NCBI RefSeq assembly: GCF_000195755.1
Contig: NC_002937.3
Span: 3,120,001 to 3,152,000 of the forward strand
Direction: 5' to 3'
Source: Nitratidesulfovibrio vulgaris str. Hildenborough
Lineage (GTDB): Bacteria > Desulfobacterota > Desulfovibrionia > Desulfovibrionales > Desulfovibrionaceae
Length of the DNA stretch: 32,000 nucleotides
The notes under the pieces were generated by a model that did no database searches, was not told where the DNA came from, and worked only from the letters and a program-made list of their open reading frames with translations. Below, piece by piece: positions 4,135 to 27,414 of this stretch. A program made the translations under genes and the position numbers. Each line of letters opens with the position of its first letter. Within the stretch, counting starts at the first letter, position 1.

Positions 4135-4138
4135 CACC

Positions 4139-4933
4139 GTGCGCGCCATGTTGCTTCAGCCCTTCTACTTTCCGTGGGCGGGCATGTTCGACATGATGTC
4201 GCGCTGCGACCTCTTCGTGTTCTACGATGACGCGCAATTCGTCCGGGGCAGCTGGCAGAGTCGCAACCGCATCCTCTCGCCGCAGGGGGTGAAGTGGCTT
4301 TCCGTGGCCATCGACAGGTCGGGACATGTGGGCACCGCCATCCGCGACATGCGCGTCAACGACCGTGAAGGCTGGCGGACGAAGCACCTCAACCAGCTGC
4401 GCGAGGCATACCGCAAGACCCCCCACTTCGACCTCGTGTACCCGGAGGTGGAGACGCTGCTGGCGCAGGACTCGGACAGGCTTGTGGACTTCTCCACCGG
4501 CAGCGTGCTGCTGTGTGCGCGGCTGCTTGGCATCGCAACGCCCGTAGCCTGCGCTTCGACCTTCGATGTCGGGCCGTGCCGGGGCGAAGAGAAGGTCATC
4601 GCCCTCATGCGCGCGGCAGGGGCAGACTGCTATTACGACGGTGCCAGCGGCGTGGAACTCTACGCACCCGAACGGTTCGCCGCCGCGGGGCTGGCATTGC
4701 GCTTCCATGCCTATGAGCACCCCGTCTACGAACAGGGTGACAGCCTGCGTGAGCATGCGGCCCTTGCGAAGGCTGGAAGCGCTGCCGCGCCGGACGTACA
4801 GGGCACGCCGGACACGACGGGCACAGGCGGCGCACGTCCCTTCACGCCCTACCTTTCCGTACTCGACCTGCTCTTCCGCACCGGGCCGCAAGCGCTGGAC
4901 ATCCTGCGTTCCGGCAACCGCGAGGTCGCCTGA
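4139..4933 (+). CDS. WbqC-family protein (polysaccharide-cluster protein of unknown biochemistry), about 264 aa
   Basis: N-terminus (V/M)RAMLLQPFYFPWAGMFDMMSRCDLFVFYDDAQF..SWQSRNRI is the typical WbqC start. The GTG at 4139 has GAGG 7 nt upstream. The alternative ATG at 4148 has no SD. The ORF-track extension back to 3821 overlaps the aminotransferase and is rejected. Confidence 0.8.
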   Translation: MRAMLLQPFYFPWAGMFDMMSRCDLFVFYDDAQFVRGSWQSRNRILSPQGVKWLSVAIDRSGHVGTAIRDMRVNDREGWRTKHLNQLREAYRKTPHFDLVYPEVETLLAQDSDRLVDFSTGSVLLCARLLGIATPVACASTFDVGPCRGEEKVIALMRAAGADCYYDGASGVELYAPERFAAAGLALRFHAYEHPVYEQGDSLREHAALAKAGSAAAPDVQGTPDTTGTGGARPFTPYLSVLDLLFRTGPQALDILRSGNREVA

Positions 4934-4961
4934 CCACACAGCATCGACAGGAAGTCGAACC

Positions 4962-6833: not shown

Positions 6834-6885
6834 CGGTACGGGAAGGCACGTCAGGAACGACACCAAGCACGCAAGGAAGCACCGT

Positions 6886-8592
6886 ATGCCGCCCACCGAC
6901 GAACACCATACCCCCCTCTCGCTGGCAGAGGACATCGCACGAGAACAGCAGAACCCCACCCTGCGGGCTGCCGTCCTGCATCTGCGCCTCGGTGAGACGG
7001 AACAGGCGCGCAGGCTGCTTGAAGAGGCCACAGCCAAATCGCCGCGCAACGGGGCCATACCGCTGGTCATGGCCCTGCACCTTGCCGCCTCGGGCGACGG
7101 CGAAGGTGCCGACACATGGTTCCGCAAGGCCCTCGCCGCCGAACCAGACCAGCCCGAGGCCCTGCGCGCCTACGGTCTCTTCCTGCTGGGGCAGGACGCC
7201 ACGGTACGTGGCCTGCGCCTGCTGCGCATGGCGGCTGAACTTGCGCCGCAATCGCTGGCCATCGGCCTCGAATGCGCCGGTGCGGCCATCATGTGCGGCG
7301 AGTACCACACCGCCCGCGACATGAGTCGCCGCATTCTCTCGGCATCTCCCGGCCACCCGCTGGCGTTGCGCAACCTCGGTGTCGCCCTCGCCGGACTCGG
7401 CGAGAAGGCAGAGGCCACGGATATACGCCGGCGTCTGCACGAAGCGGGGCACGAGGCCGAGGCCCAAGACCTCGACACCGTGCTGGCGCGCATGGAACAG
7501 GACATCCCGCCCGGTTCGCCACTGCCGGGCGACGAGGCCCTGCACCTTGCCTTCGCCTCGCGCAGCTTCGACATCTCGCCCTTCAGGATGCTGCCGTGCG
7601 AGCATGGACGCGACGACGGCCCGGTGGCCCTTTCCGTCATCGTCCCCATCAAGAACGAGGTGGAGAACCTGCCCATCCTGCACCGCGAGGTAGCGCAGGC
7701 ACTGCACGACCTCAAGCAGCCGTGGGAACTCATCCTCGTGGATGACGGCAGCACCGACGGCAGCATCGAAGTGATGGAGGGCATCGCCGCCGCCGACCCG
7801 CGCGTGACCATCATCGTCTTCCGCCGCAACTACGGACAGACGGCGGCCCTCAGCGCGGGCTTCAAGCTGGCGCGTGGCGAAGTGGTGGTGACGCTGGACG
7901 GCGACCTGCAGAACGACCCCGCCGACATCCCCATGCTGCTGGAGGTCATGGCCGAGGGCAACGACATGGTGTGCGGCTGGCGCCGCGACCGCAAGGACAA
8001 GATGGTCACCCGGCGCATCCCCTCCATGGCCGCCAACTGGATCATCAACAAGCTCATCGCGGGCACGGGTGTGCAGTTGCACGACTTCGGCTGTTCGCTC
8101 AAGGCGTACAAGCTCAACATCGTCAAGAACATCAACCTGTACGGAGAGATGCACCGCTTCATCCCGGTGTTCGCGGCATGGCTTGGCGTCCGCATCGCCG
8201 AGGTGGAGGTCAACCACCGCCCCCGCACCCACGGCGTCACCAAGTACAATCTCTCGCGGGTATGGCGCGTCATCTTCGACCTGCTGCCGCTGCGCTTCTT
8301 CTCGGACTACATGACGCGGCCCATCCATTTCTTCGGCAAGATAGCCAACTACATGGTGGCCCTCGGGCTGGGCGGCATCGCCCTGACCACCCTGCTGGCG
8401 AAACTCTTCGGCATGCCGGGTGAGACGCTCACCTTCTGCCTCATGGTGGAGGTGCTGCTCATCGGCGGTCTGCTCATCCTGTGTCAGGGACTCATCGGCG
8501 AGGTGCTCATCCGCACCTACTTCGAGGCGCAGGGCAAGCGGCAGTTCGTCATCGAACGCATCATACGGAACGGCGACACATGTGCGGAATAG
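6886..8592 (+). CDS. TPR-repeat domain fused to GT2 polyprenyl-phosphate glycosyltransferase (GtrB/ArnC/DPM1-like), 568 aa
   Basis: The N-terminal ~230 aa carry TPR-like repeats (e.g. ADTWFRKALAAEPDQPEALRAYGLFLL). The GT2 core has LSVIVPIKNE, ILVDDGSTDGS, FRRNYGQTAAL, TLDGDLQNDP, DFGCSLKAY, GEMHRFIP and H.PR.HG.TKY motifs. Two C-terminal TM helices are typical of GtrB/ArnC. SD AAGGAAG lies 6 nt upstream. Confidence 0.88.
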   Translation: MPPTDEHHTPLSLAEDIAREQQNPTLRAAVLHLRLGETEQARRLLEEATAKSPRNGAIPLVMALHLAASGDGEGADTWFRKALAAEPDQPEALRAYGLFLLGQDATVRGLRLLRMAAELAPQSLAIGLECAGAAIMCGEYHTARDMSRRILSASPGHPLALRNLGVALAGLGEKAEATDIRRRLHEAGHEAEAQDLDTVLARMEQDIPPGSPLPGDEALHLAFASRSFDISPFRMLPCEHGRDDGPVALSVIVPIKNEVENLPILHREVAQALHDLKQPWELILVDDGSTDGSIEVMEGIAAADPRVTIIVFRRNYGQTAALSAGFKLARGEVVVTLDGDLQNDPADIPMLLEVMAEGNDMVCGWRRDRKDKMVTRRIPSMAANWIINKLIAGTGVQLHDFGCSLKAYKLNIVKNINLYGEMHRFIPVFAAWLGVRIAEVEVNHRPRTHGVTKYNLSRVWRVIFDLLPLRFFSDYMTRPIHFFGKIANYMVALGLGGIALTTLLAKLFGMPGETLTFCLMVEVLLIGGLLILCQGLIGEVLIRTYFEAQGKRQFVIERIIRNGDTCAE

Positions 8593-10673
8593 CAGGCATC
8601 GTCTCTCCCGGCGCACCCGTGGCCTCCGCCACGCTCGCCGCCATGACGGAGAGTCTCGCCCATCGCGGGCCCGACGCCTGCGGCCTCTTCATCCGGCCTT
8701 CCGGGGCGGGTAGCCCCCATGTGGGACTCGGGCACCGCCGCCTGTCCATCCTCGACCTCTCCGACGCGGGCGCACAGCCCATGCAGAGTGAGGACGGGGC
8801 GTTCACGCTGGTCTTCAACGGCGAGATATACAACTACCCCGACCTGCGACGCGACCTTGAAGCCGCCGGGCACATCTTCCGTTCGACGTCCGACACCGAA
8901 GCCATCCTGCGCGGCTACATGGCGTGGGGCGAAGGTGTCGTCGCACGTCTCAAGGGCATGTTCGCCTTCGCCCTGTGGGACGAACGAAAGCGCAGCCTGC
9001 TGCTGGCCCGCGACCGCTTCGGCAAGAAGCCCCTGCACTACGCCGTCACCCGGCAGGGCACGCTGCTCTTCGCCTCCGAACCCAAGGCACTTCTCGCGCA
9101 CCCCGAATTCCGGCCCGAACCCGACGCCGCATCGCTTCTCCATTTCCTGCGCTACGACTATGTGCCCGCACCGCGTTCCATCTACGCCGGGGCCGCCAAG
9201 TTGCCGCCTTCGCATCTCATGGTGTGGCGCGACGGACGTCTTGAAGTGCGGCGTTACGCCAGCCTCGCCTTCTCCGGCGCGACCGGGGACCGCGGGGTTC
9301 CGCTGCGCGAGGCCGAAGCCGCCGTGGACGCGCTTCTCGACGCTGCCGTACAAAGACGCCTCGCCAGCGACGTGCCCCTCGGCGTCTTCCTCTCCGGCGG
9401 TCTCGACTCGTCAACGGTGCTTGCCTACATGACGCGGCACATCCCCGCCCACGACATCCGCACCTTCGCCATCGGCTTCGACGAAGCAAGCTACGACGAA
9501 TCGGCCCATGCCGAGGCCATGGCGCGCCATGCCGGGTCGCACCACACCATGATGCGCCTGCCCGCCGCGCGGATGCTCGACCTGCTGGACATGGTGTGGA
9601 CCACGCAGGACGAACCCATGGCCGACGCCTCCATCATCCCCACCCTGCTGCTGTGCCGTTTCGCGCGCGAACACATCACCGTGGCGCTGGGGGGCGACGG
9701 CGGCGACGAACTCTTCGCGGGCTACGACCCCGTGCTTGCCGACCTGCCCGCCCGCTGCCTCGACTGGCTGCCCCCGGCGGCCCTGCGGCTGCTACAGGGC
9801 ATCGCGCTGCGGCTGCCCACGGGGGACGCCAACATGAGCCTCGGCTTCAAGGTTCAGCGTTTCCTCTCCGGTCTCGGGGCACGCGAGGTGGCTGCACGCC
9901 ACCAGACATGGCTGGGGGCGTTCGACGACGAGGGGGCACGTGCCATGCTGCACCCCGACCTGCGCGCCGCCACACGCGACGTCTCGCCCCTCGACGCGCT
10001 GGACATGCTGCGCGAGGAGTGCCGCGACGCCTCACGGTTCGACGCCATGCTCCACTTCTACCAGCGCTTCTACATGTGCGGTTCCATTCTCACCAAGGTG
10101 GACAGCGCGAGCATGGCGGTCTCGCTGGAGGTGCGCTCGCCCTTCCTCGACCAGGACCTTGCGGACTACGTCAACAGGCTTCCGCGTGAGCACAAGTTGC
10201 GCGGTCTCACCCGCAAGGTGCTGCTGCGCAGGCTCATGCGTTCGCGCATGCCCGATGCGCTACTCAAACGTCCGAAGAAGGGCTTCGGCCTGCCGCTGGC
10301 CCGGTGGTTCCGCCATGAACTGCGGCCCCTCGTGACCGCCATGCTCGACCCCGGTCGCGTGGCGCAGGGCGGCCTCCTCGACCCCGTGACCGTGGAACGC
10401 ATGGTACGCGACCACCTTTCGGGACGCCGCGACCACCGCAAGGAGATCTGGTCGGCCCTGTGCGTCGAGGCATGGCGCGAACGCTACCTGCATCACAGCC
10501 GCGCCACGGCATCCGACACGATAGAATTCGGCACGACGCCCCACGGAGACGGGCACCTCATCACAGCGCAAGCCGTCCCTGCACGGTCTTCGGCTGCCAT
10601 CAACGACTCCACGAACGACAGCCCGTCATGGGCCGCGTCCCCTTCGAGGCACAGATGCAACGACTCAATCTAG
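8580..10673 (+). CDS. asnB: asparagine synthase (glutamine-hydrolysing) family amidotransferase, 697 aa, with low-complexity C-terminal tail
   Basis: Canonical Ntn start MCGIAG. GATase-II motifs HRGPD and LSI.DLS..G.QP. Synthetase PP-loop FLSGGLDSS. Overlaps the GT2 stop by 13 nt. Probably a pathway-specific amidotransferase rather than housekeeping AsnB. Confidence 0.9.
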   Translation: MCGIAGIVSPGAPVASATLAAMTESLAHRGPDACGLFIRPSGAGSPHVGLGHRRLSILDLSDAGAQPMQSEDGAFTLVFNGEIYNYPDLRRDLEAAGHIFRSTSDTEAILRGYMAWGEGVVARLKGMFAFALWDERKRSLLLARDRFGKKPLHYAVTRQGTLLFASEPKALLAHPEFRPEPDAASLLHFLRYDYVPAPRSIYAGAAKLPPSHLMVWRDGRLEVRRYASLAFSGATGDRGVPLREAEAAVDALLDAAVQRRLASDVPLGVFLSGGLDSSTVLAYMTRHIPAHDIRTFAIGFDEASYDESAHAEAMARHAGSHHTMMRLPAARMLDLLDMVWTTQDEPMADASIIPTLLLCRFAREHITVALGGDGGDELFAGYDPVLADLPARCLDWLPPAALRLLQGIALRLPTGDANMSLGFKVQRFLSGLGAREVAARHQTWLGAFDDEGARAMLHPDLRAATRDVSPLDALDMLREECRDASRFDAMLHFYQRFYMCGSILTKVDSASMAVSLEVRSPFLDQDLADYVNRLPREHKLRGLTRKVLLRRLMRSRMPDALLKRPKKGFGLPLARWFRHELRPLVTAMLDPGRVAQGGLLDPVTVERMVRDHLSGRRDHRKEIWSALCVEAWRERYLHHSRATASDTIEFGTTPHGDGHLITAQAVPARSSAAINDSTNDSPSWAASPSRHRCNDSI

Positions 10674-11221
10674 GCTGCGGCCAGTACCCCAAAGCGGGGT
10701 TCCTCAACGTGGACGTGGACCCGCTTGCCAAGGCGGACGTGTTCCACGACCTGTCGTCCTTCCCCTATCCGTTCGAGGATGCGCGGTTCGACCTCGTGGA
10801 GATGGACCATGTGCTCGAACACCTGCCCTCGCCGCGCGACGCCATGCGCGAGATATGGCGCATCCTGAAACCGGGCGGCACGCTACGGTTACGGGTACCC
10901 CACTTCTCGCGCGGGTTCAGCCACTACGACCACAAATGCGGCTTCGACGTGACCTTTCCTCTCTATTTCGACCCCACGTTCCCCGGCGGCTACACGGGCA
11001 TCCCCTTCGAGCATGTGCAGACGCGCCTTGTGTGGTTCGCGCAGCCTTGGCTCAAGCGGCAGGTGCTCGGCAACTTCGCCTTCAATGTGGGCAAGATGCT
11101 GGGGATGGTCTTCGACGCGCTGGGCAACATCGCGCCGCTGGCGACGAGCAGGCTTTTCTGCTTCTGGGTGGGCGGCTACGAGGAGATAACCTTCGAGTTG
11201 CGCAGGCCGACGAACACCTGA
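10655..11221 (+). CDS. class I SAM-dependent methyltransferase (Methyltransf_11-like), about 188 aa
   Basis: MQRLNLGCG(QYPKAGFLNVD) glycine-rich SAM motif at the N-terminus, and later LKPGG. ATG 10655 has GAGG 5 nt upstream. The alternative ATG at 10628 has no SD. Both overlap the AsnB tail. Confidence 0.8.
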   Translation: MQRLNLGCGQYPKAGFLNVDVDPLAKADVFHDLSSFPYPFEDARFDLVEMDHVLEHLPSPRDAMREIWRILKPGGTLRLRVPHFSRGFSHYDHKCGFDVTFPLYFDPTFPGGYTGIPFEHVQTRLVWFAQPWLKRQVLGNFAFNVGKMLGMVFDALGNIAPLATSRLFCFWVGGYEEITFELRRPTNT

Positions 11222-11268
11222 CCCTTGAACGGCTCACGTACCCGGCAACCGGCTCACGCCTCGACCAG

Positions 11269-11317
11269 AATACGACACGCCATGACGGTTTCTCGTCCGT
11301 CATGGCGTGTCGTATTT
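11269..11317. terminator. bidirectional rho-independent-type terminator between convergent operons
   Basis: Perfect 20-bp stem (AATACGACACGCCATGACGG / CCGTCATGGCGTGTCGTATT) with 8-nt loop TTTCTCGT. All 20 pairs were checked by hand. ATTT/AAAT-type ends flank both strands. It lies in the 114-bp gap between stops at 11221 (+) and 11336 (-). Confidence 0.8.
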
Positions 11318-11335
11318 GCGTGCCAGGTCTCTATT

Positions 11336-12781
11336 TCATCCTACCTGAGTTCGCGCGGCCTTGACCTGTGCAATGGCGATACGCAACATGAGCAAAGGAG
11401 ACATGCGAACAGGCACAATTCGCTTGAACAGCAGATTCTTGGTCACGGTATAGATGCATTTAAAAAGAATGTTATTACTGGGCAGCTTCGCCAGACAACG
11501 CAGGAACACTCCACGCAAGACCGGAAAGCGGATGACCAGAGGCCCCAGCAGAACGATGTTCTTCTGGATGTTCTTCTCTTCATCCGTGTAGGTCGTCAGC
11601 TTCGAAAGTTCGCCGGTCGACGTGGGTATGTCGCCATCGCCGCCACATCTTTCGGGCAGGATGCCGTCCTTTTCACACATGTCGTGAATCCGTGTTCCGG
11701 GGAAGGGTGCCATGATTGTGAAGTGACCCAATGTAGGCCGGCACCTGATATTCAAGTCCAGTGTGGCGATGTCGTCAGCGAGCGTGGCACGGGGCATGGC
11801 GAGCATGCTATTGGTGTAGATGGCGATGCCAGCCTCGTTGAACAGGTCGAACGATTCGATGATCTTCTCGTTTGAAACCCTACGGTTGAGTACATCACGG
11901 CGCACTGTCTCGGCCCCTGCCTCTATGGACATGCACACCGAACGACAGCCAGCTTCGCGCAACAGGCGGACCATGTCACGCGTGACCACGTCAGCCCGCA
12001 GCAGGCAATAGAACGGCAGCCCGATCAACCTCGGATACTTTTCAGCAAATTCTTCAAGCCACGAATCAACGCGATACGTAAACGAATCATCAGAAATCTT
12101 GATGTATGATGTCGGATAACGTGCGATGACGTCACGCATCTCGGCAATGAGGTGGTCAACTGAGCGTCTTCTTACGACATGCCCAAGACCTGCATACATG
12201 GCATTGTAGGCATGGTTGAAACAATAGGTGCACTTGAAATGGCAACCTCGTGACGCGGCGAAGGTCTTCAGTGGAAAATCTCTTACGATATGGTTCTTAG
12301 CGTAGACTATATCGCGATCTATAAAAGGCAGGTCGTCAAGGTCTGAGACAAGCGGCCTCAGGGTGACAGGCGTTGTGACCGTTCCGACATTGCGTATCCC
12401 CTCGACATGCCCCTCCCTTCCATACTGTTCAAGAGCTTCTACAAGTGCCTCATCGCCTTCGCCAACGCATATAGCGTTTACAGGGAGCACCATAAGACAC
12501 GAAGGATCGAATGTTGGATGCGGTCCACCTACGATGATGAAAAGGTCAGGGAAGACCATTCGAACCTTATTCAGGACTTGATGCATCATCACTGCATCCG
12601 AACTCATGAGGCTTACGCCAAGCATATCGGGCTGAAAAGACCTGATGGCTTCAATATAGTCTTCAGTCAGAAGTGTCAGGCCAACGATATGCCCTCTCTG
12701 CTTCAAGCTTGCGGAAAGCTGCATAAGCCCGAGAGGATCACCCTCAAGGCTTAATCGCGGATGCAGGAACATGAAGCGCAT
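11336..12781 (-). CDS. cobalamin(B12)-binding-domain radical SAM enzyme (class B), 481 aa; compositionally foreign (low GC)
   Basis: Start MRFMFLHPRL.. is preceded by GGGAGA. The N-terminal B12-binding-like Rossmann region (LGLMQLSASLKQRGH.V..) is followed by RGCHFKCTYCFNH (CxxxCxxC). The ORF-track N-terminal extension (to 13129) overlaps the upstream methyltransferase and is Arg/Gly/Cys junk. Hand counts of four 60-nt lines give 38-47% GC, against 73% in one flanking line counted. Confidence 0.85.
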   Translation of the reverse strand: MRFMFLHPRLSLEGDPLGLMQLSASLKQRGHIVGLTLLTEDYIEAIRSFQPDMLGVSLMSSDAVMMHQVLNKVRMVFPDLFIIVGGPHPTFDPSCLMVLPVNAICVGEGDEALVEALEQYGREGHVEGIRNVGTVTTPVTLRPLVSDLDDLPFIDRDIVYAKNHIVRDFPLKTFAASRGCHFKCTYCFNHAYNAMYAGLGHVVRRRSVDHLIAEMRDVIARYPTSYIKISDDSFTYRVDSWLEEFAEKYPRLIGLPFYCLLRADVVTRDMVRLLREAGCRSVCMSIEAGAETVRRDVLNRRVSNEKIIESFDLFNEAGIAIYTNSMLAMPRATLADDIATLDLNIRCRPTLGHFTIMAPFPGTRIHDMCEKDGILPERCGGDGDIPTSTGELSKLTTYTDEEKNIQKNIVLLGPLVIRFPVLRGVFLRCLAKLPSNNILFKCIYTVTKNLLFKRIVPVRMSPLLMLRIAIAQVKAARTQVG

Positions 12782-12812
12782 TGCCGTCTCCCTGGATTGA
12801 CCTGAGTCTAGC

Positions 12813-13844
12813 CTAACTCGTCCGCCGGTAGACCGACACGAACGACCCCGACTTGCGAAGCCATGCCTGCACGATGTTGAGGGGCAGAAACGCCAGCAGC
12901 AGCCACTTGTAGTACCATGCCCGACCGCGGGTGAGCGGTCGCCGCGTCGACGGTGTTGCCTGAAGGCGGTTCTGTACCGAGAGTGCCCAGTGGTCGGTGT
13001 TGGGCTGGAAGCTACGCGAGGCGAGGCGCAGCCCGCACAGCGCAGCAAGCCTGTCCAGCGACACCGGCCCGAAGAGGTAGGTATGCCGCGGCACATGCAG
13101 CCCGCCCCACCAGCGCCCGGCGACGGCATAGTCCCACGAGTCGGTGTTGGGGGTCTCCACCACGATGTGCCCGCCGGGACGCAGCAGCCGCACGGCCTGT
13201 TCCAGTTCGGCTACGGGGTCGGTGACATGCTCGATGAGGTTGTTCATGATGATGACGTCGTAGGGTTCGGCGTCCTTCATGTCGGCAAGCGTTCCGGTCA
13301 CGACGCGGAAGCCCCGGTCGCGGGCACGTTGCGCGATGTCGTCGATGAACTCCACCCCTTCCGGCACCACATCGGGCCGCGCCTTCACCAGTGCGTCGAA
13401 ATAGGCGGCATCCGCACACCCCACGTCGAGGAGTCTTCCCCCTCGCGGCAACAGACGCCCGTAGGCCCGTACCCGCAGACCGTACACCAGCCTGTAGAGA
13501 AGACCCACCAGCCCCTTCGCCCCGGTATGGAAGCCGTGATAGTGCGGCGGATAGGCGGCTTTGAGCTGTTCGATACCGGGTTGCGGCGTCAGCACCAAAA
13601 GGCCGCACTCGGCGCAATGTCCGAAGCCGAAATCGCCCTCCGCGCCGTATTCGTAGTCGGGCACATGCGCGAATGCCGGTGCAAGCCGCACCGCGCACAG
13701 CGGACAATGCCCGTGCTGCACGCCGCCTGCGTTCTCTTCAACCCTTTCCGTGGGCCTTTCCGTGGGCCTTTCCGCAGGCCCTTCCGTAGGCCTTCCGGCG
13801 GCATCTGCACTCCCGTGCATGCGGTCGTTCGTCGCGTCTTTCAT
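12813..13844 (-). CDS. class I SAM-dependent methyltransferase with N-terminal Cys4 zinc-ribbon and (R/G)P(T/A)E tetrapeptide repeats, 343 aa
   Basis: Zn-ribbon CPLC...(24 aa)...CAECG. SAM motif I is LLDVGCADAAYF, with later motifs IIMNNLIEH and LRPGG. The start ATG overlaps the stop of the upstream gene (ATGA on the - strand at 13841-13844). Confidence 0.85.
   Translation of the reverse strand: MKDATNDRMHGSADAAGRPTEGPAERPTERPTERVEENAGGVQHGHCPLCAVRLAPAFAHVPDYEYGAEGDFGFGHCAECGLLVLTPQPGIEQLKAAYPPHYHGFHTGAKGLVGLLYRLVYGLRVRAYGRLLPRGGRLLDVGCADAAYFDALVKARPDVVPEGVEFIDDIAQRARDRGFRVVTGTLADMKDAEPYDVIIMNNLIEHVTDPVAELEQAVRLLRPGGHIVVETPNTDSWDYAVAGRWWGGLHVPRHTYLFGPVSLDRLAALCGLRLASRSFQPNTDHWALSVQNRLQATPSTRRPLTRGRAWYYKWLLLAFLPLNIVQAWLRKSGSFVSVYRRTS
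13743..13790 (-). repeat. in-frame tandem repeat, 4 x 12 bp (CCTTTCCGTGGG-like), inside the methyltransferase N-terminus
   Basis: Units are cctttccgtggg, cctttccgtggg, cctttccgcagg and cccttccgtagg, with a degenerate fifth unit. They encode RPTEGPAERPTERPTER on the - strand. Confidence 0.9.
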
Positions 13845-14974
13845 CTATCCCCCGAGAGGCGTTCGCGGATGAAGGTCTCGCTCATGGCGGGCAGGCAGCC
13901 GTGGCTGCCGTCGAGACCATAGTACGGGTCGGCGAGGATGTCCTGCTGGATGGCTGCCAGACCCTTCTCGCGCACATTGCCGTACCGTATCTGGATGAGC
14001 GGACACGAGACCACGTCGCCGTAGGGTTGCAGGCCCAGCTTCTCACGCCCGGCGGGGCACTTGATGCGCGTGAGGCTCGAATAGAGGTCGGAACGGTTGT
14101 TGGTCGACTGCGCGAGGAACCAGTAGAAATAGAACCGCGCCTTCTCGGTGAGCATCATGTCCATGCGCCCCCGCAACGCCCCGGTGAGGCAGCAAGGGGT
14201 CACCTGCAACATGCAGCCGTGCTTCTTCGCAAGGTCCATGGTGAAGAGCATGTCGTCAGAGCGCACCTTCTGGTTGGTGAGAATGGTGTTGAGCACCACA
14301 CCCACGCCACGTTTACGGAACGCCTCGATGTTGTGGAACACCTTGCGGTAGCCGCCGCGCACGCGGTTGGCGTCGTGCACGTCCTCGAAGGCGGAGTCGA
14401 AGCCCATCTCCACGGAATCGAGATGGTGTTCCGCAAGGCGGGCGACCTTGTCGTCGTCGAGCAGCGTACCGTTGGTGCACAGGTGCACGTAGCCCTTATG
14501 CCGCGTCTTGATGTAGTCGAGAAGCGCGAAGACCTTCTCCTCCTCCAGCATCGGTTCTCCACCGTTGATGCAGAACTGGAAGGCTCCCATGTCGACAGCC
14601 TCGTCGATGACACGCTGCAATTCGGGCAGGGTGAGCAGTTCGGTCTTCTCACGCACGGGGTCATGGTCACGTCTGCACGAGCACTGCTCGCAGCGGGCAT
14701 TGCAGCGATAGGTGACGGCGATCTCGAGCGAACGCAGCAAACGCTTGCGCCCCCTCGCCGCGTTGACGAACCCCGACGCGACCTTGCCCCAGATATCGGG
14801 ATGCGAGAGCACGATGCGCGCGCTCTGCACCACACGGTTGGCGTGCATCTGCGCGTAGGTGAGGGTACGCCCCCACGCAGAGGCCCACTTGCGGTCGAAG
14901 TCCTCATGGTACGCGGCAAGGCTTCTGCCGTTGGAAAGGGTGCTGGCACGCACCGTGGTCTTCGTCTCTTGCAT
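13841..14974 (-). CDS. radical SAM enzyme with SPASM/twitch-type auxiliary cluster domain, 377 aa
   Basis: AVTYRCNARCEQCSC (CxxxCxxC). GGEPML SAM-binding motif. C-terminal Cys motifs (VTPCCLTG, IKCPAGREKLGLQPYGDVVSCP). Strong SD GGGAGG lies upstream. Confidence 0.88.
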   Translation of the reverse strand: MQETKTTVRASTLSNGRSLAAYHEDFDRKWASAWGRTLTYAQMHANRVVQSARIVLSHPDIWGKVASGFVNAARGRKRLLRSLEIAVTYRCNARCEQCSCRRDHDPVREKTELLTLPELQRVIDEAVDMGAFQFCINGGEPMLEEEKVFALLDYIKTRHKGYVHLCTNGTLLDDDKVARLAEHHLDSVEMGFDSAFEDVHDANRVRGGYRKVFHNIEAFRKRGVGVVLNTILTNQKVRSDDMLFTMDLAKKHGCMLQVTPCCLTGALRGRMDMMLTEKARFYFYWFLAQSTNNRSDLYSSLTRIKCPAGREKLGLQPYGDVVSCPLIQIRYGNVREKGLAAIQQDILADPYYGLDGSHGCLPAMSETFIRERLSGDR

Positions 14975-15055
14975 GTTGCCTCCCGTCGGCGGTGTCCCGC
15001 CGGGCCGACATCGTGCGTCGGCACTGCCTTGCGTGACGCCGCGCGCGTGCGCGGT

Positions 15056-16513
15056 CTAGAAGAACGTCTTGAAGAACGTACGGGCCGTGTCCAGCAGGTC
15101 GGCGGGGCGCAGCCTGCGCAACTGGATGAGGAACGGACGCGGGCGCAGGTAGAACCGCCGCAGGGCGCGCTTCTGCGCCGCAAGCAGTCCTTCGACCGAA
15201 TGTTCGGGCGTCACCCATATGGGCTTGTTGTCCGAAAAAGAGGCGTACGACGAATACCGACGCCAGACTTCGGGGTCGAGAGTGTCGCCGGGGCGCACAC
15301 CGTCGTCGATGATGCCCTCGGCCCGGAGTTGCTCGAAGATGGGCGACCCCGGATATGGCGTCAGGATGGAGAATTGTGCCATGTCCAGCGGCAGGCTGCA
15401 TGCGAAGTCGATGGTGGCGTCACTGTCCTCCGGGCGTTCACCCGGCAACCCGAGGATGAAGAGACCGATGGCGTTGATGCGACTCACCCGCTTCACCATG
15501 CGGATGGCGTCGGCTATCTGGGCCGTGGTCTGCCGTTTGTTGACCGCCGTAAGCAGCCTGTCCACGCCGGATTCGATGCCGAAGTTCATGTCCACGCAGC
15601 CGCCCGCAGCCATGGCACGGACGCTGTCCTCGTCGATGGTGTTGACGTGCGCCTCGCACCCCCAGCGCAGACCGGGAAAATGATGCCGCAGGGCGTCCGA
15701 GAGTTCGATGATGCGCTTCTTGCGGCTGGTGAACAGCGAGTCGCAGAAGAAGATGTAGCCGGCGTCGTACTCGCGCAGCAGCAGGTCGACCTCGCCGATG
15801 ACGGAATCGATGGGCCGCACGCGGATGCCGATGTTCTTGTGCGCCACGCAGAAAGTGCAGCGGTTGACGCACCCCCGGGACGAGAAGAGATGCTTCTCCG
15901 TCTTGCCCTCCGGGGTACGGTACAGACTGAAGTTGGGCGTTCTGGCGAAGCTGTAGAGTTCCTTGCGCGTGAGGTCGCGGGCTGGCAACGGCAGGGTGGA
16001 GAGGTCGCGCACGAAGGCGTGCCCGCCCGTCTCGGCGACCACGCCGTCACGCACATAGGCGATGGAGGGCACGGTGGCGAGGTCTCCGCCTTCCTCGAGT
16101 ACGCGCAACAACGCAGGCATGACCTCTTCGCCCTCACCCCGCACCACCACGTCGCAGCAACCGCTGGCGAGGTACTGCCGTGCATAGATGGTGGCGTGGA
16201 CGTTGCCGAGAAGGACGTGCACCCCCGGCATCTCCTGCCGCAGTCTGCGCCCGAAGGTGTACAGGAAACCGCCGTTGGACGTGAACGAGGTGAAGGACAC
16301 CACCTGCGGGGCCGCATCGCGGATGCGCCGCATGAGCGTCTCCTCATCGAGGTTCTCGGCATAGGCGTCGATGAACGCCACCTCGTGCCCCGCCTCGCGG
16401 CACGCCGCCGCCACGTACAGCAGTCCCAAGGGCTCCATCGTGGAGACGAACGATGCGCCGTCGCCCAGCAGCGCCGCAAGGTCGTCAGGCGGATTGATGC
16501 ACAGAACCTTCAT
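15056..16513 (-). CDS. cobalamin(B12)-binding-domain radical SAM enzyme (class B), 485 aa
   Basis: MKVLCINPP... B12-binding-like N-domain (EPLGLLYVAAACREAGHEV, VVSFTSFT, VVRGEGE). Radical SAM core SSRGCVNRCTFCVAH. SD AAGGA lies upstream. Confidence 0.88.
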   Translation of the reverse strand: MKVLCINPPDDLAALLGDGASFVSTMEPLGLLYVAAACREAGHEVAFIDAYAENLDEETLMRRIRDAAPQVVSFTSFTSNGGFLYTFGRRLRQEMPGVHVLLGNVHATIYARQYLASGCCDVVVRGEGEEVMPALLRVLEEGGDLATVPSIAYVRDGVVAETGGHAFVRDLSTLPLPARDLTRKELYSFARTPNFSLYRTPEGKTEKHLFSSRGCVNRCTFCVAHKNIGIRVRPIDSVIGEVDLLLREYDAGYIFFCDSLFTSRKKRIIELSDALRHHFPGLRWGCEAHVNTIDEDSVRAMAAGGCVDMNFGIESGVDRLLTAVNKRQTTAQIADAIRMVKRVSRINAIGLFILGLPGERPEDSDATIDFACSLPLDMAQFSILTPYPGSPIFEQLRAEGIIDDGVRPGDTLDPEVWRRYSSYASFSDNKPIWVTPEHSVEGLLAAQKRALRRFYLRPRPFLIQLRRLRPADLLDTARTFFKTFF

Positions 16514-16548
16514 GCCCCGAGTCCTTTTTCGGCAGGATGTACGCCACC

Positions 16549-16917
16549 CTACACTTCGAGGGCAAGCCTGTCGCGTTCCTTGTCGTCACGCTCGAACTGC
16601 ACCGCCGTGCCGTAGCACGAGAAGTACTTGCTGCCGTCGGGGTGGAAGGCCACGTTCTCGCTGTAGCCGATGATGGCCTGTGCGCCCTTGTTCACCGCGC
16701 GCGCCGCCATGCCGAAGAAGGTCTCGTCCGAATCGTAGCCGCGGCAGCACACCAGCCCGAGTACGCGCGAAATGGCACGCCCTTCGACCCGGTCGGTGGT
16801 CACCACGGGAAAACGACCGTTGAGAAAGAGTTCGCGAACCCTCTCCATGTTCTCGGTGCGCGGGGTGTTCTCGGCCTTGGCCTTCTTCTTGTCGTTACCG
16901 CCCAGCAGAAACAGCAT
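16549..16917 (-). CDS. small protein, 122 aa; by-eye resemblance to YbjQ/UPF0145 domain with shortened middle and a Lys-rich N-terminal extension
   Basis: Strong SD AGGAGGA lies about 6 nt upstream of the ATG, and a sigma-54 promoter lies about 40 nt upstream. VVTTDRVEGRAISRVLGLV... and ...GAQAIIGYSENV...CYGTAVQFE resemble the ends of YbjQ-family proteins. The confidence value refers to the CDS call; the functional assignment is weak (about 0.35). Confidence 0.7.
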   Translation of the reverse strand: MLFLLGGNDKKKAKAENTPRTENMERVRELFLNGRFPVVTTDRVEGRAISRVLGLVCCRGYDSDETFFGMAARAVNKGAQAIIGYSENVAFHPDGSKYFSCYGTAVQFERDDKERDRLALEV

Positions 16918-16955
16918 GTGTGCATCCTCCTGACTTCAGTGTCTGGAGGTTCGGA

Positions 16956-16971
16956 AGCAAGGCACATGCCA
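16956..16971 (-). promoter_or_regulatory. sigma-54 (RpoN) -24/-12 promoter for the radical-SAM operon
   Basis: The - strand reads TGGCATGTGCCTTGCT. This fits TGGCAC-N5-TTGCW with exact GG/GC spacing and one mismatch (C to T at position 6). It lies 38 nt upstream of the ATG at 16917, in a 167-bp intergenic gap. Confidence 0.7.
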
Positions 16972-17084: not shown

Positions 17085-18116
17085 CTACACGGTGGTGCAC
17101 ATGACGGCGGTGCCGAGGTCGTCCACCATGGCGGTCATGGCGTTGGCTACGGCCTCCAGATGCTGCGGGGTGAGCCCCGACGCCTCCCACGCGGAGGCGG
17201 ACAGCGGAGGCACCGCACTCTCTGCGTCGGGCCCGTACCCCATGGCGCGGGCCACGATATCGGCAAGATGGATGACCGAAGGTTCGGGCATGGAGGGCAC
17301 GGATTCCGGCTCATGATGACGCAGCACGGACATGACGAGCGGCACGGGCATGTTCCACTTGTGCAGCAACATGCCCCCCAGCTTGGCGTGGTCGAAACCG
17401 AGAAGTTCACGCTCGGCGAGATGCCCCGGCAGATGCGAGGCACGCAACCGGGGCACAAGCTGGGCAGCCTTCTGTGGTGCCATCATCACGAAGGCAAGAT
17501 ACCCCACGTCGTGCAGCACCCCCGCCACGAAGAGCCTTTCAGGGTCGGGCCGCCCCATGAGCCGCCATATCTCGCGTGCCGCCCCGCCCACGGCGAGGCT
17601 GTGCCGCCATAGCCGTTCCATGTCCACCAGCCCTCGCGGCACGGACCGCATGAGTGACTGCAACATGCCGCTCGCCACCATGGTCTCCAACTGGCGCATG
17701 CCCACCACCGCCACAGCCTGCGTCACCGTGTCCACCCGGCCCGAAAGTCCGTACGAGGCGCTGTTGACCACGCGCAGCAGCCACGCCGTCAACCCCGCGT
17801 CGCGGGTGATGACCTCCGCCGCCTCGCGCACCGAGCAATCGGGGTCTGCAAGACGTTGACGCAACTCGACGTACACCGTGGGCAGGGATGGCAATGCACC
17901 GTCATGCTGCAACAACTCCACCGGGTCGATGGGGGACAGCGGCGGACTGCCTACCTCGTGCGGGTCGTCCGCGACCATGCGCCTTCCTGCGTCGGTCCCT
18001 TGGTTCACGGCCAGTTCACGCAAGGCTGCCAGCGCTGGATGCGCGCCGTCGTTGTGCCTGAACCGCCGCTCAAGCAGTGCGTCGGCCATCAGGCCCGCTA
18101 CCGTGTCCCTGTCCAT
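17085..18116 (-). CDS. HDOD-domain signalling protein, 343 aa
   Basis: HDOD hallmarks: LPSLPTVYVELRQRLADPDCSVREAAEVITRDAGLTAWLLRVVNSASYGL, VTQAVAVVGMRQL, LWRHSLAVGGAA, AGVLHDVGYL, GFDHAKLGGMLLHKWNMP, V.RHHEP. The start at 18116 (MDRDTVAGL..) has GGAGGTG 6 nt upstream. The 113-aa N-terminal extension in the ORF track is rejected. Confidence 0.85.
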   Translation of the reverse strand: MDRDTVAGLMADALLERRFRHNDGAHPALAALRELAVNQGTDAGRRMVADDPHEVGSPPLSPIDPVELLQHDGALPSLPTVYVELRQRLADPDCSVREAAEVITRDAGLTAWLLRVVNSASYGLSGRVDTVTQAVAVVGMRQLETMVASGMLQSLMRSVPRGLVDMERLWRHSLAVGGAAREIWRLMGRPDPERLFVAGVLHDVGYLAFVMMAPQKAAQLVPRLRASHLPGHLAERELLGFDHAKLGGMLLHKWNMPVPLVMSVLRHHEPESVPSMPEPSVIHLADIVARAMGYGPDAESAVPPLSASAWEASGLTPQHLEAVANAMTAMVDDLGTAVMCTTV

Positions 18117-18516
18117 GCTGCACCTCCATGCCCGTACGAGGAGCATACCATACACCCGCGGGGCAGGGGCAAGACCGTGAGAGCGACTTCTGCGACACGG
18201 CAGCGCCGCCCCCGCAGGCGGGGAAAACGGAAGGTCCCACACATGCGACGCGCCCATCGGACAGTCGCGCCCCCGGGAACCATCTCGCAGAGGCGGAAGG
18301 CCCGACACACGAGGCAGCACCGGCGACCCCGCAGGACATGCCGCTTCATGCGCGGACACGGTAGCGGGCACCACAGCGGGCACATCCGTGAAGATGACGA
18401 CGCCGGGAAGCGGGCACCATCCCTTGACCGGGACGAAGAACCCCGGCAATACCATTCCCTGACGGGACGCACCGCACCCGAATGTGCGCGCAGTCAGTCC
18501 ATGTCACGGAGCCGCC

Positions 18517-21500
18517 ATGCACACACAGCCCGCCATCAAAGCCCTTCTCCAACGCGCACTGTGCGCCATCGTCCTGTGCCTGTGCTGCGTCCTGTGCGCC
18601 CCGCCCGCCCCGGCACATGCCGATGCGAGCCGCAAGGCCGTGCTCTATCTCAACTCGTACCACAACGGCTATTCGTGGTCCGACGACATCCTCGCCGGCA
18701 TCCGCAAGGTACTGGAGGCTTCGGGGCGCGCCCTCGTCTTTCAGGTCGAATACATGGACTCCAAGAAGTTCCTGTACAAGGAGACCGAACAGACCCTCTA
18801 CCGCCTCTACCGCGACAAGTTCCGCGACACGCGCTTCGACCTCATCATCGCCTCCGACAATGCGGCGATGGACTTTCTGACACGCTTCCGCGACGAGCTT
18901 TTCCCCGGTGTGCCCGTGGTCTTCTGCGGCCTCAACGACGTGAAGCCCGAGAGCCTTCGCGGTCGCAACATGACGGGGGTCATCGAGGACTACGATGTCG
19001 CCGCCAACATCGAACTCGCCCTGCGTTTCAACCCCCAGCTACGGCGCATGGTCATCATCGGTGACGACTCGGTGACGGGTGCCGCCATCCGCAACCAGGT
19101 CATGGCGCAGGTGGCACCGTTGCGCGACCGCATCGAGGTCGAGGAGTGGACGGACTACCGCCTAGACCAGATGCTCGCATGGGTGCGCGAACAGCCCGCC
19201 GACACCTTCTTCTACTTCGTGCCCATCTACCGGGACATCGGCGGCCTCTTCTATACCGCCGAGGAACTGCTGCAGAAGGTGCGCGCCAACTCGCGCGCCC
19301 CGCTGTACAGCAACTGGGAGTTCCTGCTCGACCACGGCATCGTGGGCGGCAAGCTCATCTCCGGCGTGCGACATGGCGAGATGGCGGCGGAACTGGCGTT
19401 GCGCGTGCTCGACGGCGAAAAGGCCGACGCCATCCCCATCATCGAACGTGCCGACGAAGAGTACATGTTCGACAACAAGGAACTGACACGCCTGTTCATC
19501 AGCCGTTCCATGCTGCCCCCCGGCAGCGTGGTCATCAACGAACCGAGCAGGTTCTACGAGCTCAACAAGCAGGTCTTCTGGACCATCATCATCAGTCTCG
19601 TCATCCTCTCGCTGACACTGGTGCTGCTGGTCATGAACATCCTCGACAAACGCCGGGTCGAGGGCAAGATCAAGGACCAGCTTTCGTACCTGCGGCAGCT
19701 CACCGACACCATTCCACTGCCGGTCTACAGCAAGGACGCCGACGGACGCATCCGCGAGTGCAACCTCGCCTTCCTGCAGTTCTTCTCCGTGGAACGCGAG
19801 TCCGTGCTGGGCCGATACGAATGGCAGGCGGGTGAACGTCTGGCGCTGCTGCGCAATGCCGTGGACACCGACCTCATGCGTGAACCGGGGCAGGCCGCCT
19901 ATGACGACACCCTGCCGGGGCCCGATGGGGAGGCGCGCAACGTCATCGTGCACAAGGCGACCTACAGCAACGCGCGCGGGGCCATCGCGGGGCTTGTGGG
20001 GGTCGTCGTCGACTACACCGACCGCAAAAGGGCCGAAGACAGCCTGCGTGCCGCCGAAGAGAAGTACCGCTCCATCTTCGAAAGCTCGCCCCTCGGCATC
20101 TTCCGTCTCTCCCCGGAGGGCAGCCTCTCCGACGCCAACCCCGCGTTCGCACGCATGGCGGGCTACGACTCGTCACCCGCCATCATGAAACAGGGCCGCC
20201 CCGCCATGGACGCCCTGCTTTCCGGCCTCGACCTCGCACGGGTGGGGCATGAGGGCATCCTCACGTGGGTCGCCGATGTGCAGCGCCCCGACGGCAACCG
20301 CTGCACCATGCACCTCACGCTGCTCATCCGGCGCGACGCGCTGGGCGCACTCCGCCTCGTGGAGGGCTATGCCGAGGACATCACCAAACGCAAGGAGACC
20401 GAACGCGCCCTCTCCGCCTCGCAACGCATGTTGCGGCTGGTTCTCGACAACATCCCCCAGTTCGTCTACTGGACCGACCGCGACCTGCGCTTCATCGGGG
20501 CCAACCGCTCGTTCCTCACCTTCTTCGGCTTCGCCGAATCGCATGATATCAGCGGCCTGACCATGAACGACATCCTCACGACGGCAGTGCACTGGATCGT
20601 GCAGGAGGCCAACCATGCCGTCATCGAGACGGGCAACCCCCGCTACCAGTCCAAGCTGACCATCACCTCGCCCGCAGGGGAGAAGGTGTGGCTCGAGACG
20701 AGTCGCGTGCCCCTCATGGGCGAACGGGGCGATGTGGTGGGTTTGCTCACCACCGCCGAAGACGTGACCCAGCGCATCCACCTCGAACGACAGCTCCTCC
20801 AGTCGCAGAAGATGGAGGCCATCGGCACGCTGGCCGGCGGCATCTCGCACGATTTCAACAACATCCTCACCTCCATCATCAACTCCATCGAACTTGCCAT
20901 CAACGACGTGGCGGCCGACTCGCTGACCTTCACCGACCTCATGCGCGCCCTCAAGGCGGCGCAACGCGGCAGCCGTCTGGTCAAGCAGATTCTCACCTTC
21001 AGCCGTCCTTCGGTGGAGGGCTTCACCACCGTCGACCTCAACGAGGTGGTCACCGAGGCACTGGTGCTCATCAAGGCATCGATGCCGCGCAACATTCAGG
21101 TGCGCACCGCCGTGCCGCCCGACCCCTCGATCACGCGGGCAGACCCCACCCAGTTGCATCAGGTCATCATGAACCTGTGCACCAACTCGTTCCATGCCCT
21201 GCGCGAATCGGGCGGGGTGCTCGACATCAACCTCGAACAGGAACCCATCGGCCCCGAAGAGGCCCATGCCTTCGGCGTCGAACCGGGGTGCTGGCTGCGT
21301 CTCACTGTGTCGGACAACGGGCCGGGCATCCCGCAGGAGATACTGGACAAGATATTCGACCCCTTCTTCACCACCAAGGGCAAGACCGAAGGTACGGGGC
21401 TCGGCCTTGCGGTGGTGCACGGCATCATCAAGGGCCACAGGGGTGCCATACGGGTGTCCAGCCTCGCCCACAGGCGAACCGCCTTCGAGATCCTGCTTCC

Positions 21501-23357: not shown

Positions 23358-23378
23358 ACCGTGGTCGCACACACCCCA

Positions 23379-23534
23379 TCCGCTTTTTCAGACACGACCC
23401 GACACCGCGCCCCTACGTCCACTTTTTCAGACAGCCACCCGGTAGGCCGTTTACCCGCACAATCATGGCATCATCGCCATCTTCGGCGCATTGTCAGTAG
23501 GGTAACGCCACACGAAGTCCGCTTTTCAAGACAC
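23379..23534 (+). promoter_or_regulatory. three direct copies of a 17-bp motif (candidate upstream activating sequences for the adjacent NtrC-type regulator)
   Basis: TCCGCTTTTTCAGACAC (23379-23395), TCCACTTTTTCAGACAG (23418-23434) and TCCGCTTTTCAAGACAC (23518-23534). They lie about 80-240 bp upstream of the sigma-54 promoter. Confidence 0.6.

Positions 23535-23766: not shown

Positions 23767-27414
<3,648 letters not shown>

Follow-up and report, generated by a model that had tools for sequence, protein, structure and literature searches.

On what do three radical S-adenosylmethionine (SAM) enzymes act when no substrate is recognisable in their own gene set? The question is posed by five genes of Nitratidesulfovibrio vulgaris str. 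Hildenborough that lie, with their promoter, wholly on the minus strand of a 32,000-nucleotide (nt) stretch of contig NC_002937.3 (positions 3,120,001 to 3,152,000), hereafter the window. The five proteins are exact matches to AAS97491-AAS97487, that is DVU3020-DVU3016 (tags assigned by position relative to AAS97494 = DVU3023). We conclude that DVU3019-DVU3016 probably encode enzymes that work in the cytoplasm as the tailoring arm of a cell-envelope glycan pathway whose core is the convergent group DVU3012-DVU3015, because family 2 glycosyltransferase (GT2) and AsnB-like amidotransferase genes form conserved neighbourhoods of DVU3019, and of DVU3018 with DVU3017, across many phyla. This judgement covers the claim about context; any individual mechanistic step is held with much less confidence.

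A first-pass annotation of the locus had seen no recognisable substrate gene, which misses the point, as the likely substrate is a sugar that the convergent DVU3012-3015 produce and carry. The conserved gene neighbourhoods lend strong support to its fallback idea that radical SAM enzymes tailor the adjacent glycan. The locus is less mysterious than it first appeared, since the "missing substrate" most probably has its genes alongside. The gene order and named domains of the five-gene set were confirmed by open reading frame (ORF) coordinates and Pfam. The promoter, the five genes and the convergent core are arranged as follows.

16956-16971, minus strand: sigma-54 (-24/-12) promoter TGGCATGTGCCTTGCT, 5' of DVU3020 (motif scan; site of Kazakov 2015)
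16549-16917, minus strand: DVU3020, a 122-residue divergent YbjQ-like protein (Pfam YbjQ_1)
15056-16513, minus strand: DVU3019, a 485-residue radical SAM protein with a cobalamin (B12)-binding domain, class B architecture (Pfam)
13841-14974, minus strand: DVU3018, a 377-residue radical SAM protein with one auxiliary-cluster twitch-like C-terminal domain (Pfam and invariant cysteines)
12813-13844, minus strand: DVU3017, a 343-residue Zn-ribbon class I SAM methyltransferase (Pfam Methyltransf_23)
13743-13794, no strand: 12-bp tandem repeat, 4.3 copies, coding the ERPT repeats of DVU3017 (Tandem Repeats Finder)
11336-12781, minus strand: DVU3016, a second radical SAM protein with a B12-binding domain, 481 residues, within a longer ORF (Pfam)
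11271-11318, no strand: perfect 20-bp inverted repeat between the convergent units (sequence, folding)
10655-11221, plus strand: DVU3015, a small class I methyltransferase (Pfam)
8580-10673, plus strand: DVU3014, an asparagine-synthase-like (Ntn glutamine) amidotransferase (Pfam Asn_synthase, 313 bits)
6886-8592, plus strand: DVU3013, an N-terminal tetratricopeptide repeat (TPR) region and an ArnC/GtrB-like polyprenyl-phosphate glycosyltransferase, GT2 (ArnC/GtrB structure matches)
4962-6833, plus strand: DVU3012, a polytopic membrane protein with C-terminal TPR, candidate periplasmic transferase (hydropathy, homologues)

Gene neighbourhoods of the radical SAM enzymes

We compared 80 genome loci anchored on the DVU3019 family, comprising 47 orthologue loci (at least 39% identity) and 33 remote loci, mostly from Archaeoglobi. 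The family is large (807 clusters at E<1e-30) and occurs in Omnitrophota, Elusimicrobia, Thermodesulfobacteriota, Magnetococcales and other groups. Within 10 kb of the anchor, an AsnB-like gene was found in 23 of the 47 orthologue loci and an ArnC-like GT2 gene in 13, with either or both in 26. Among the orthologue loci with both flanks of at least 5 kb, AsnB and/or GT2 was present in 17/26. The remote loci contained AsnB in 0/33 cases and GT2 in 1/33. A Pfam census of the 106 ORFs within 1.3 kb of a DVU3019-orthologue anchor, in which the 25 commonest families were considered, was headed by Asn_synthase (13), Glycos_transf_2 (11), Radical_SAM (10) and methyltransferases.

The twitch enzyme leads to the same neighbours. 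The DVU3018 family is small (46 clusters), and a DVU3018-type gene adjoins a DVU3017-type methyltransferase gene in more than 20 loci; in D. vulgaris the two genes share a 4-nt start/stop overlap. This adjacency indicates that DVU3017 is the fixed partner of DVU3018. When loci were anchored on the DVU3018 family, the order GT2-AsnB-twitch-methyltransferase was seen in five of them and AsnB-twitch-methyltransferase on two further short contigs, and the family stands beside AsnB-GT2 in most adequately flanked loci. AsnB-like genes are the commonest neighbours of DVU3019 and DVU3018 orthologues alike. One metagenomic locus (L090) has the co-directional order GT2, AsnB, methyltransferase, B12-domain radical SAM (485 residues), twitch, methyltransferase, methyltransferase and membrane protein. 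It holds the DVU3013, 3014, 3015, 3019, 3018 and 3017 set in one operon, where the position of DVU3012 is taken by a polytopic membrane protein that is not related to it. Judged by this gene content, D. vulgaris has the same module split into two convergent units.

Elsewhere, the module genes are often co-directional in one operon, usually inside polysaccharide or lipopolysaccharide (LPS) clusters. Glycan contexts in other phyla include Wzy with the initiating transferase Bac_transf; Lpt with KdsD; Rml, uridine diphosphate-glucose dehydrogenase and GT87; a heptosyltransferase; and an ABC-2 exporter with a PMT_2-like protein. An Endomicrobiales metagenome-assembled genome (MAG) contig (JAFGGC010000007, 1-21455; our locus L120, equal to L004) has about 12 radical SAM genes in 20 kb, several of them SPASM or B12-binding, with an ABC-2 exporter, a PMT_2-like membrane protein, GT2, an acetyltransferase and TPR proteins, and looks like an extreme of the same theme. 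In the MAGs of Archaeoglobi (L052-L079, about 8900-11300 in each), remote DVU3019 homologues of 30-33% identity have no AsnB or GT2 neighbours, and in most loci they follow a radical SAM gene of the SPASM type with 22-27% identity to DVU3018. The two archaeal genes form a separate conserved pair.

A conserved set of exactly five genes was not recovered. In the neighbourhoods of three relatives, L084, L085 and L081 (the 89%-identical, 82%-identical and 62% relatives, respectively), each locus holds a different subset. L084 has HDOD, YbjQ, B12, twitch and methyltransferase genes and lacks DVU3016. L085 has the order B12-twitch-methyltransferase-B12 and no YbjQ-like gene, and its four enzymes lie between nonulosonic-acid genes and a methyltransferase-AsnB-GT2-membrane protein group. 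L081 has, of the five genes, the two B12-domain enzymes only, in the co-directional order methyltransferase-B12-B12-GT2-AsnB-membrane protein-NeuB-epimerase-oxidoreductase-cytidylyltransferase. On this gene content, the five genes are a variable cassette and no co-conserved unit. Recurrent partnerships exist within it, as DVU3016-type and DVU3019-type genes occur together in L081, L085 and one other locus (L119).

DVU3020 is the least constant member. It matches PF01906 (YbjQ_1) at 27.8 bits (cut-off 23), with the C-terminal 39 residues (69-107) alone aligned, and by this match is a divergent YbjQ / UPF0145 member. An exhaustive HMMER search of 1.84 billion proteins returned 45 representatives at E up to 1e-3, most of them 60-75% identical. 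The gene is present in L084, and is absent from L085, from all DVU3018-anchored loci and from all 80 DVU3019-family loci (tblastn, E up to 10). This distribution marks DVU3020 as a lineage-specific passenger behind the promoter, outside the conserved module. It had been raised as a conceivable substrate or carrier of the radical SAM enzymes; it is missing wherever the enzymes occur beyond the closest relatives, and with 45 representatives and no occurrence in the 80 loci or L085 a role as conserved substrate or carrier was ruled out.

Nonulosonic-acid genes (NeuB, cytidylyltransferase, 2-epimerase and a HisH/HisF-type amidotransferase) are constant neighbours of the module within the Desulfovibrio lineage. 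In the window, the convergent glycan cluster continues upstream of DVU3012 with the following genes, and the radical SAM/SPASM gene that the first reading had placed there was confirmed by Pfam.

890-1966, plus strand: NeuB (Pfam)
1963-2946, plus strand: radical SAM/SPASM gene of the convergent glycan cluster (Pfam)
2956-4134, plus strand: DegT aminotransferase (Pfam)
about 4157-4933, plus strand: WbqC-like gene (Pfam)

These nonulosonic-acid and amino-sugar genes (890-4933) gave PseC-, ArnB-, NeuB- and PseI-like NCBIfam matches, all below the equivalog cut-offs. They have been assigned to the sigma-54-dependent operon DVU3004-3011 (Kazakov 2015). Could the nonulosonic acid itself be what the enzymes modify? 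The radical SAM enzymes would then tailor a legionaminic- or pseudaminic-type sugar, or its cytidine monophosphate form, supplied by DVU3004-3011, for example by C-methylation of the N-acyl side chain, and GT2 and AsnB would be a separate matter. In each of the three Desulfovibrio-lineage contexts the enzymes do have NeuB and cytidylyltransferase genes as neighbours, the nonulosonic-acid operon of L085 holds an extra B12-domain radical SAM gene and a methyltransferase, and in D. vulgaris the radical SAM/SPASM gene sits between NeuB and DegT. Outside the lineage, however, NeuB is found within 10 kb in 1/47 orthologue loci (L012), compared with 26 for AsnB or GT2, and DVU3018-anchored loci have GT2-AsnB without NeuB. 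We consider nonulosonic acid an unlikely substrate. The L085 operon in question (2531-9693, minus strand) carries this third B12-domain radical SAM gene (526 residues) and the methyltransferase between 2-epimerase and NeuB, along with HisH/HisF-type amidotransferase genes.

The enzymes and their predicted chemistry

B12-domain radical SAM enzymes typically methylate unactivated carbons, and relatives cyclise, contract rings or dehydrate. DVU3019 matches B12-binding (PF02310) at 92.2 bits and Radical_SAM (PF04055) at 66.5 bits, and DVU3016 matches the same families at 68.7 and 70.2 bits. The CX3CX2C motif (C215/C219/C222) is invariant in the DVU3019 family. Both proteins thus have the class B domain architecture, and they may bind cobalamin and transfer methyl groups. 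The best solved relative of both is AprD4 (E 4.7e-24 and 3e-13), which dehydrates a sugar diol.

None of the enzymes of the five-gene set reached the cut-off of a curated NCBIfam equivalog model. The best matches of DVU3019 were ApyD (169 bits, cut-off 750), BchE (159, cut-off 481) and HpnJ (131, cut-off 578); HpnJ was also among the best for DVU3016 (82 bits, cut-off 578). A match to rSAM_ocin_1 scored 85 bits against a cut-off of 282. DVU3016 stands out in composition, with a GC content of 52% and a GC content at third codon positions (GC3) of 0.60, compared with 0.79-0.90 in neighbouring genes. Because of this GC3 deviation, and because DVU3016 is 91% identical to its homologue in L085, a lower-GC relative, when DVU3019 is 82% identical to its own counterpart there, the data indicate that D. 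vulgaris gained this gene recently or had it laterally replaced.

DVU3018 matches Radical_SAM at 86.2 bits and SPASM at 23.1 bits, the latter over profile positions 1-43 of 67 only. The invariant cysteines of its family are C91/C95/C98 and C262/C306/C324/C360 only. Since four invariant cysteines follow the core and the SPASM match is partial, the protein is, on its conserved residues, a one-cluster twitch enzyme and no full SPASM protein. The earlier label of SPASM/twitch enzyme accordingly stands for the radical SAM core with a twitch-like domain and falls for the seven-cysteine, two-cluster SPASM motif. Its structural model (predicted local distance difference test, pLDDT, 88.8) matches SkfB, viperins, SuiB, MoaA and BlsE with template modelling (TM) scores of 0.5-0.6, and its best NCBIfam match is the mycofactocin maturase (93 bits, cut-off 265). 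Twitch enzymes include sugar dehydrogenases and decarboxylases.

DVU3017, its partner, matches Methyltransf_23 at 74.8 bits. A CxxC...CxxC Zn ribbon (C47/C50/C77/C80) is invariant in the family, and there are weak matches to the sugar 3-C-methyltransferase TcaB9 (E 1.2e-4) and to another such enzyme (to 1e-3). Strain variants of 338, 342 and 343 residues differ in the copy number of the ERPT repeat in the N-terminal extension. The original GenBank model, of 302 residues, starts 3' of the repeat and, like the homologues of other phyla, opens with the Zn ribbon.

In the convergent core, residues 248-561 of DVU3013 match solved ArnC (E 3.5e-48) and, over the whole domain, GtrB (E 3e-33). With a DGD motif and two C-terminal hydrophobic helices at about 486-540, DVU3013 is by homology a polyprenyl-phosphate glycosyltransferase of the Arn/Gtr-type GT2 group, although its NCBIfam scores lie below the cut-offs for ArnC (184 bits, cut-off 529) and PgfS (142 bits, cut-off 500). 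DVU3014 passes the cut-off of asn_synth_AEB, the generic glutamine-hydrolysing asparagine synthase; it is nearest to the XrtA/PEP-CTERM-associated amidotransferase TIGR03108, which it matches end to end at 541 bits (cut-off 817). Homologues of DVU3015 adjoin the module in L081, L084, L085 and four other loci (L098, L104, L109, L117).

DVU3012 is harder to place. It has homologues in L084, L085 and L081, and a homologue search gave two close matches only. Its membrane part had no Pfam match (E up to 1) and, as a membrane-domain profile, no match among solved structures; the profile of the whole family matched TPR proteins only. A single-sequence AlphaFold model had a pLDDT of 47, and hhalign against PMT_2-like neighbours gave a probability of 0.2. 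The membrane proteins in the same position in L090 and L120 match PMT_2, a glycosyltransferase of the GT-C class, at or near threshold (L090, 25.8 bits, threshold 26.1).

Class B enzymes also act on lipids. HpnI and HpnJ already exemplify the pairing of a GT2 and a B12 radical SAM enzyme, and the enzymes of D. vulgaris might act on a lipid or polyprenyl carrier in the manner of hopanoid (HpnJ/HpnR/HpnP) or ladderane-type class B enzymes. The sub-threshold NCBIfam matches to HpnJ (131 bits), HpnR and a ladderane-associated family would fit such a role, as would a GT2 partner that acts on lipid phosphate and a Brocadiaceae locus among the orthologues. However, the hopanoid-type matches are far below curated cut-offs, the annotated neighbourhoods showed neither hopanoid nor fatty-acid genes, and the contexts are polysaccharide/LPS clusters. 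We regard a lipid substrate as very improbable.

Hardly any credence is left for maturation of a ribosomally synthesised and post-translationally modified peptide (RiPP) or a similar protein, with the YbjQ-like protein or an unannotated small peptide as substrate. DVU3019 does score highest against the RiPP enzyme ApyD among NCBIfam models, the DVU3018 model is roughly as close to SkfB, SuiB and CteB as to any other fold, and lasso-peptide cyclases belong to the AsnB-like enzymes, but the YbjQ-like gene is missing from all 80 loci, from L085 and from the DVU3018-anchored loci, the gaps of the five-gene set contain no credible precursor ORF, the 25 commonest families of the census include none of transporters, peptidases or RiPP-associated proteins, and DVU3014 scores 214 bits against the lasso cyclase family (cut-off 525). 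No leader peptidase or dedicated exporter was found in the window. The first-pass annotation had itself noted the lack of a precursor-peptide ORF, peptidase and exporter and had argued from it against a canonical RiPP cluster; the ORF checks in the gaps and the Pfam search of the window bore out the absence, and the argument holds for precursor, peptidase or exporter, and maturase family alike. The RiPP reading was rejected on these grounds (no precursor, no peptidase, maturase-family scores below cut-offs, and a DVU3020 that is not co-conserved).

How could an envelope-glycan pathway use these enzymes? The GT2, of ArnC/GtrB type, would load an activated sugar onto undecaprenyl phosphate, and the AsnB-like enzyme would amidate a carboxylate of the sugar (e.g. 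of a uronic acid). The B12-domain enzymes may methylate unactivated carbons or perform another radical rearrangement, while the twitch enzyme and Zn-ribbon methyltransferase would work as a fixed two-step pair, for instance radical oxidation or epimerisation and then methylation. Tailoring would take place in the cytoplasm, on the lipid-carrier-linked or nucleotide-linked form. The finished lipid-linked sugar would then be flipped and transferred in the periplasm, possibly by DVU3012, to an acceptor that could be LPS or a surface glycoprotein also bearing the nonulosonic acid made next door.

Several points weigh against this account. About a third of the well-flanked DVU3019-orthologue loci lack AsnB and GT2 within 10 kb. 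The fold search with DVU3018 falls equally near peptide-modifying and nucleotide- or sugar-modifying radical SAM enzymes, and so does not discriminate. The form acted upon may be a nucleotide sugar, an undecaprenyl-phosphate sugar or the finished glycan. DVU3012 is a candidate GT-C transferase whose homology and fold could not be demonstrated, and no flippase gene was identified for the proposed pathway. Methylation by DVU3019 and DVU3016 is not assured, because AprD4, their nearest solved relative, is cited in a 2026 review of B12 radical SAM enzymes as not binding cobalamin. The operon behind the sigma-54 promoter has been given as DVU3020 alone (Kazakov 2015), and its co-transcription with DVU3019-3016 is putative. 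Finally, our literature search found no biochemical or genetic work on any of these genes. What we report is a well-supported genomic inference about context, not a discovered mechanism.

More tentatively, many anaerobic or uncultured bacteria might share an envelope pathway in which a polyprenyl-phosphate-linked sugar is amidated, rebuilt by radical SAM enzymes and then transferred in the periplasm; the rebuilding may be C-methylation, oxidation or rearrangement. The groups concerned are Omnitrophota, Elusimicrobiota, Planctomycetota, Myxococcota, Magnetococcales, Nitrospirota and Desulfovibrionaceae. If true, cobalamin-type radical SAM chemistry would for the first time be assigned to a glycan of the cell surface, and branched or amidated surface sugars of a new class would result. 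D. vulgaris Hildenborough offers a genetically tractable model for a module that recurs in many phyla, most of them uncultured; it comprises an ArnC-like GT2, AsnB and a twitch radical SAM enzyme paired with a Zn-ribbon methyltransferase, and B12-domain radical SAM enzymes may or may not accompany them. Understanding it would bring new sugar chemistry and help to interpret the numerous genes labelled "radical SAM" in metagenomic glycan clusters.

Promoter, hairpin and flanking genes

The gaps from DVU3020 to DVU3016 measure 35, 81, -4 and 31 nt, and the element TGGCATGTGCCTTGCT upstream of the first gene has the GG at -24 and the GC at -12 of a sigma-54 promoter at the proper spacing. It deviates by one mismatch from TGGCACG-N4-TTGCW and is the sole such site in the 32 kb, although at least one promoter-type match arose in 39/100 shuffles and a single match per 32 kb is not rare by itself. 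Three relatives carry a TGGYAY-N5-TTGCW motif directly 5' of radical SAM genes. The motif precedes the YbjQ-like gene in L084 and the B12-B12-GT2-AsnB-...-NeuB run in L081; in L085, which has no YbjQ-like gene, it lies 109 nt 5' of the first B12-domain gene and is the sole match in 21 kb (0.09 expected). Because the motif stays 5' of the radical SAM genes with or without the YbjQ-like gene, we infer that the promoter serves these enzymes and not DVU3020 alone. The near-consensus RpoN promoter of the first reading is thus real, and it had already been published as CATGGCATGTGCCTTGCTT at -56, one of 87 sigma-54 promoters in this strain, with no assigned activator and the function given as "unknown" (Kazakov 2015). 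The glycan operon DVU3004-3011 is also sigma-54-dependent (Kazakov 2015). A promoter that serves the enzymes fits the published view that sigma-54 in this organism controls mainly cell-exterior functions, the adjacent DVU3004-3011 included.

Between the convergent units, a perfect 20-bp stem with an 8-nt loop (11271-11318) folds at -44.5 kcal/mol (z = -7.2). On the operon strand no U-tract follows it 3' (the tail is CUGGUCGAGG), and a terminator scan made no call. Because the U-tract is missing, we read the structure as a hairpin between convergent units and not as a textbook intrinsic terminator: of the "perfect terminator" annotated earlier, the perfect hairpin stands and the Rho-independent termination does not.

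Rfam and tRNA scans of the window gave no match, and no riboswitch was seen upstream of the operon. A 904-residue plus-strand ORF (13901-16615) runs antisense to DVU3018 and DVU3019, and more long antisense ORFs occur across the window; they are probably not genes and are typical of GC-rich DNA. Upstream, the HDOD/HD-domain gene DVU3021 (17085-18455, minus strand) opens as a 456-residue ORF, and its true start is probably near 18116 because the homologue in the 89% relative has only 343 residues. The order sensor kinase, HDOD gene, YbjQ-like gene, radical SAM genes is kept in that relative (L084). From 18484 to 30792 extends the known lactate-utilisation region, unrelated to the radical SAM finding and in agreement with the published DVU3023 regulon. 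It contains the hybrid sensor kinase DVU3022, the sigma-54 activator DVU3023 (21933-23357), pyruvate:ferredoxin oxidoreductase, lactate permease and a flavin adenine dinucleotide-linked (D-lactate/glycolate-type) dehydrogenase.

Comparison with known systems

Much is known of the radical SAM and cobalamin-type enzymes that act in antibiotic, cofactor, lipid and peptide chemistry. Our literature search turned up no such enzyme with an assigned role in a bacterial surface polysaccharide or lipid-carrier sugar pathway, and no paper joining B12 radical SAM enzymes with polysaccharides. Searches by locus tag and by module returned no paper on DVU3012-3020 or on the gene combination; one apparent match to a locus tag was false, a typo for DVU3062. 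The words polysaccharide, glycan, glycosyl and aminoglycoside are all absent from the 2026 review of B12 radical SAM enzymes. The first-pass annotation could map the combination to no characterised pathway, and this held, with no curated equivalog family reached and no paper found.

The closest analogues of the core are the Arn (ArnB/ArnC/ArnT), Gtr (GtrA/B/C) and Pgf (PgfS/PgfM) systems, in which a sugar on undecaprenyl phosphate goes to an acceptor across the cytoplasmic membrane. Like them, the D. vulgaris cluster has a full-length ArnC/GtrB homologue (DVU3013), a DegT/ArnB-like aminotransferase and a polytopic membrane protein. Unlike them, its DVU3013 scores below the ArnC and PgfS cut-offs, and no homologue of ArnA, ArnD, ArnT or GtrA was recognised in the cluster. 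The AsnB-like amidotransferase, radical SAM enzymes and several methyltransferases of the D. vulgaris module have no counterpart in the Arn, Gtr and Pgf systems.

Hopanoid head-group tailoring employs HpnI (GT2), HpnK and HpnJ (B12 radical SAM). It resembles the D. vulgaris locus in pairing a family 2 glycosyltransferase with a class B radical SAM enzyme whose substrate is a lipid-linked sugar, and HpnJ is among the best matches of DVU3019 and DVU3016, but at 131 and 82 bits against 578, with no hopanoid genes seen nearby and with polysaccharide/LPS neighbourhoods.

The sugar-tailoring enzymes of aminoglycosides and nucleosides (AprD4, GenK/GenD1, BtrN and BlsE) offer a chemical parallel, as AprD4 is the best solved relative of the B12-domain enzymes, and BlsE and other twitch-type enzymes are among the sequence and fold matches of DVU3018. 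Identities are nevertheless 15-20% and TM scores about 0.5-0.6, and the D. vulgaris genes sit in the setting of an envelope glycan and a lipid carrier instead of a secondary-metabolite cluster. The four-cysteine Zn ribbon of DVU3017, placed before a class I fold, recalls the sugar 3-C-methyltransferases TcaB9 and TylC3, which have an N-terminal zinc-binding domain; DVU3017 differs in matching generic methyltransferases (UbiG) better and in having no Pfam TcaB9-type zinc or C-terminal domain.

AsnB-like enzymes that form uronamides occur in O-antigen clusters. The XrtA/PEP-CTERM amidotransferases of polysaccharide loci (TIGR03108) align with DVU3014 end to end, but DVU3014 falls below their cut-off and the annotated neighbourhoods showed no exosortase gene. 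Collectively, these comparisons separate the familiar from the new: tailoring enzymes in a glycan cluster and an Arn/Gtr-like lipid-carrier route are familiar, and the uncharacterised radical SAM combination that recurs across many phyla is new.

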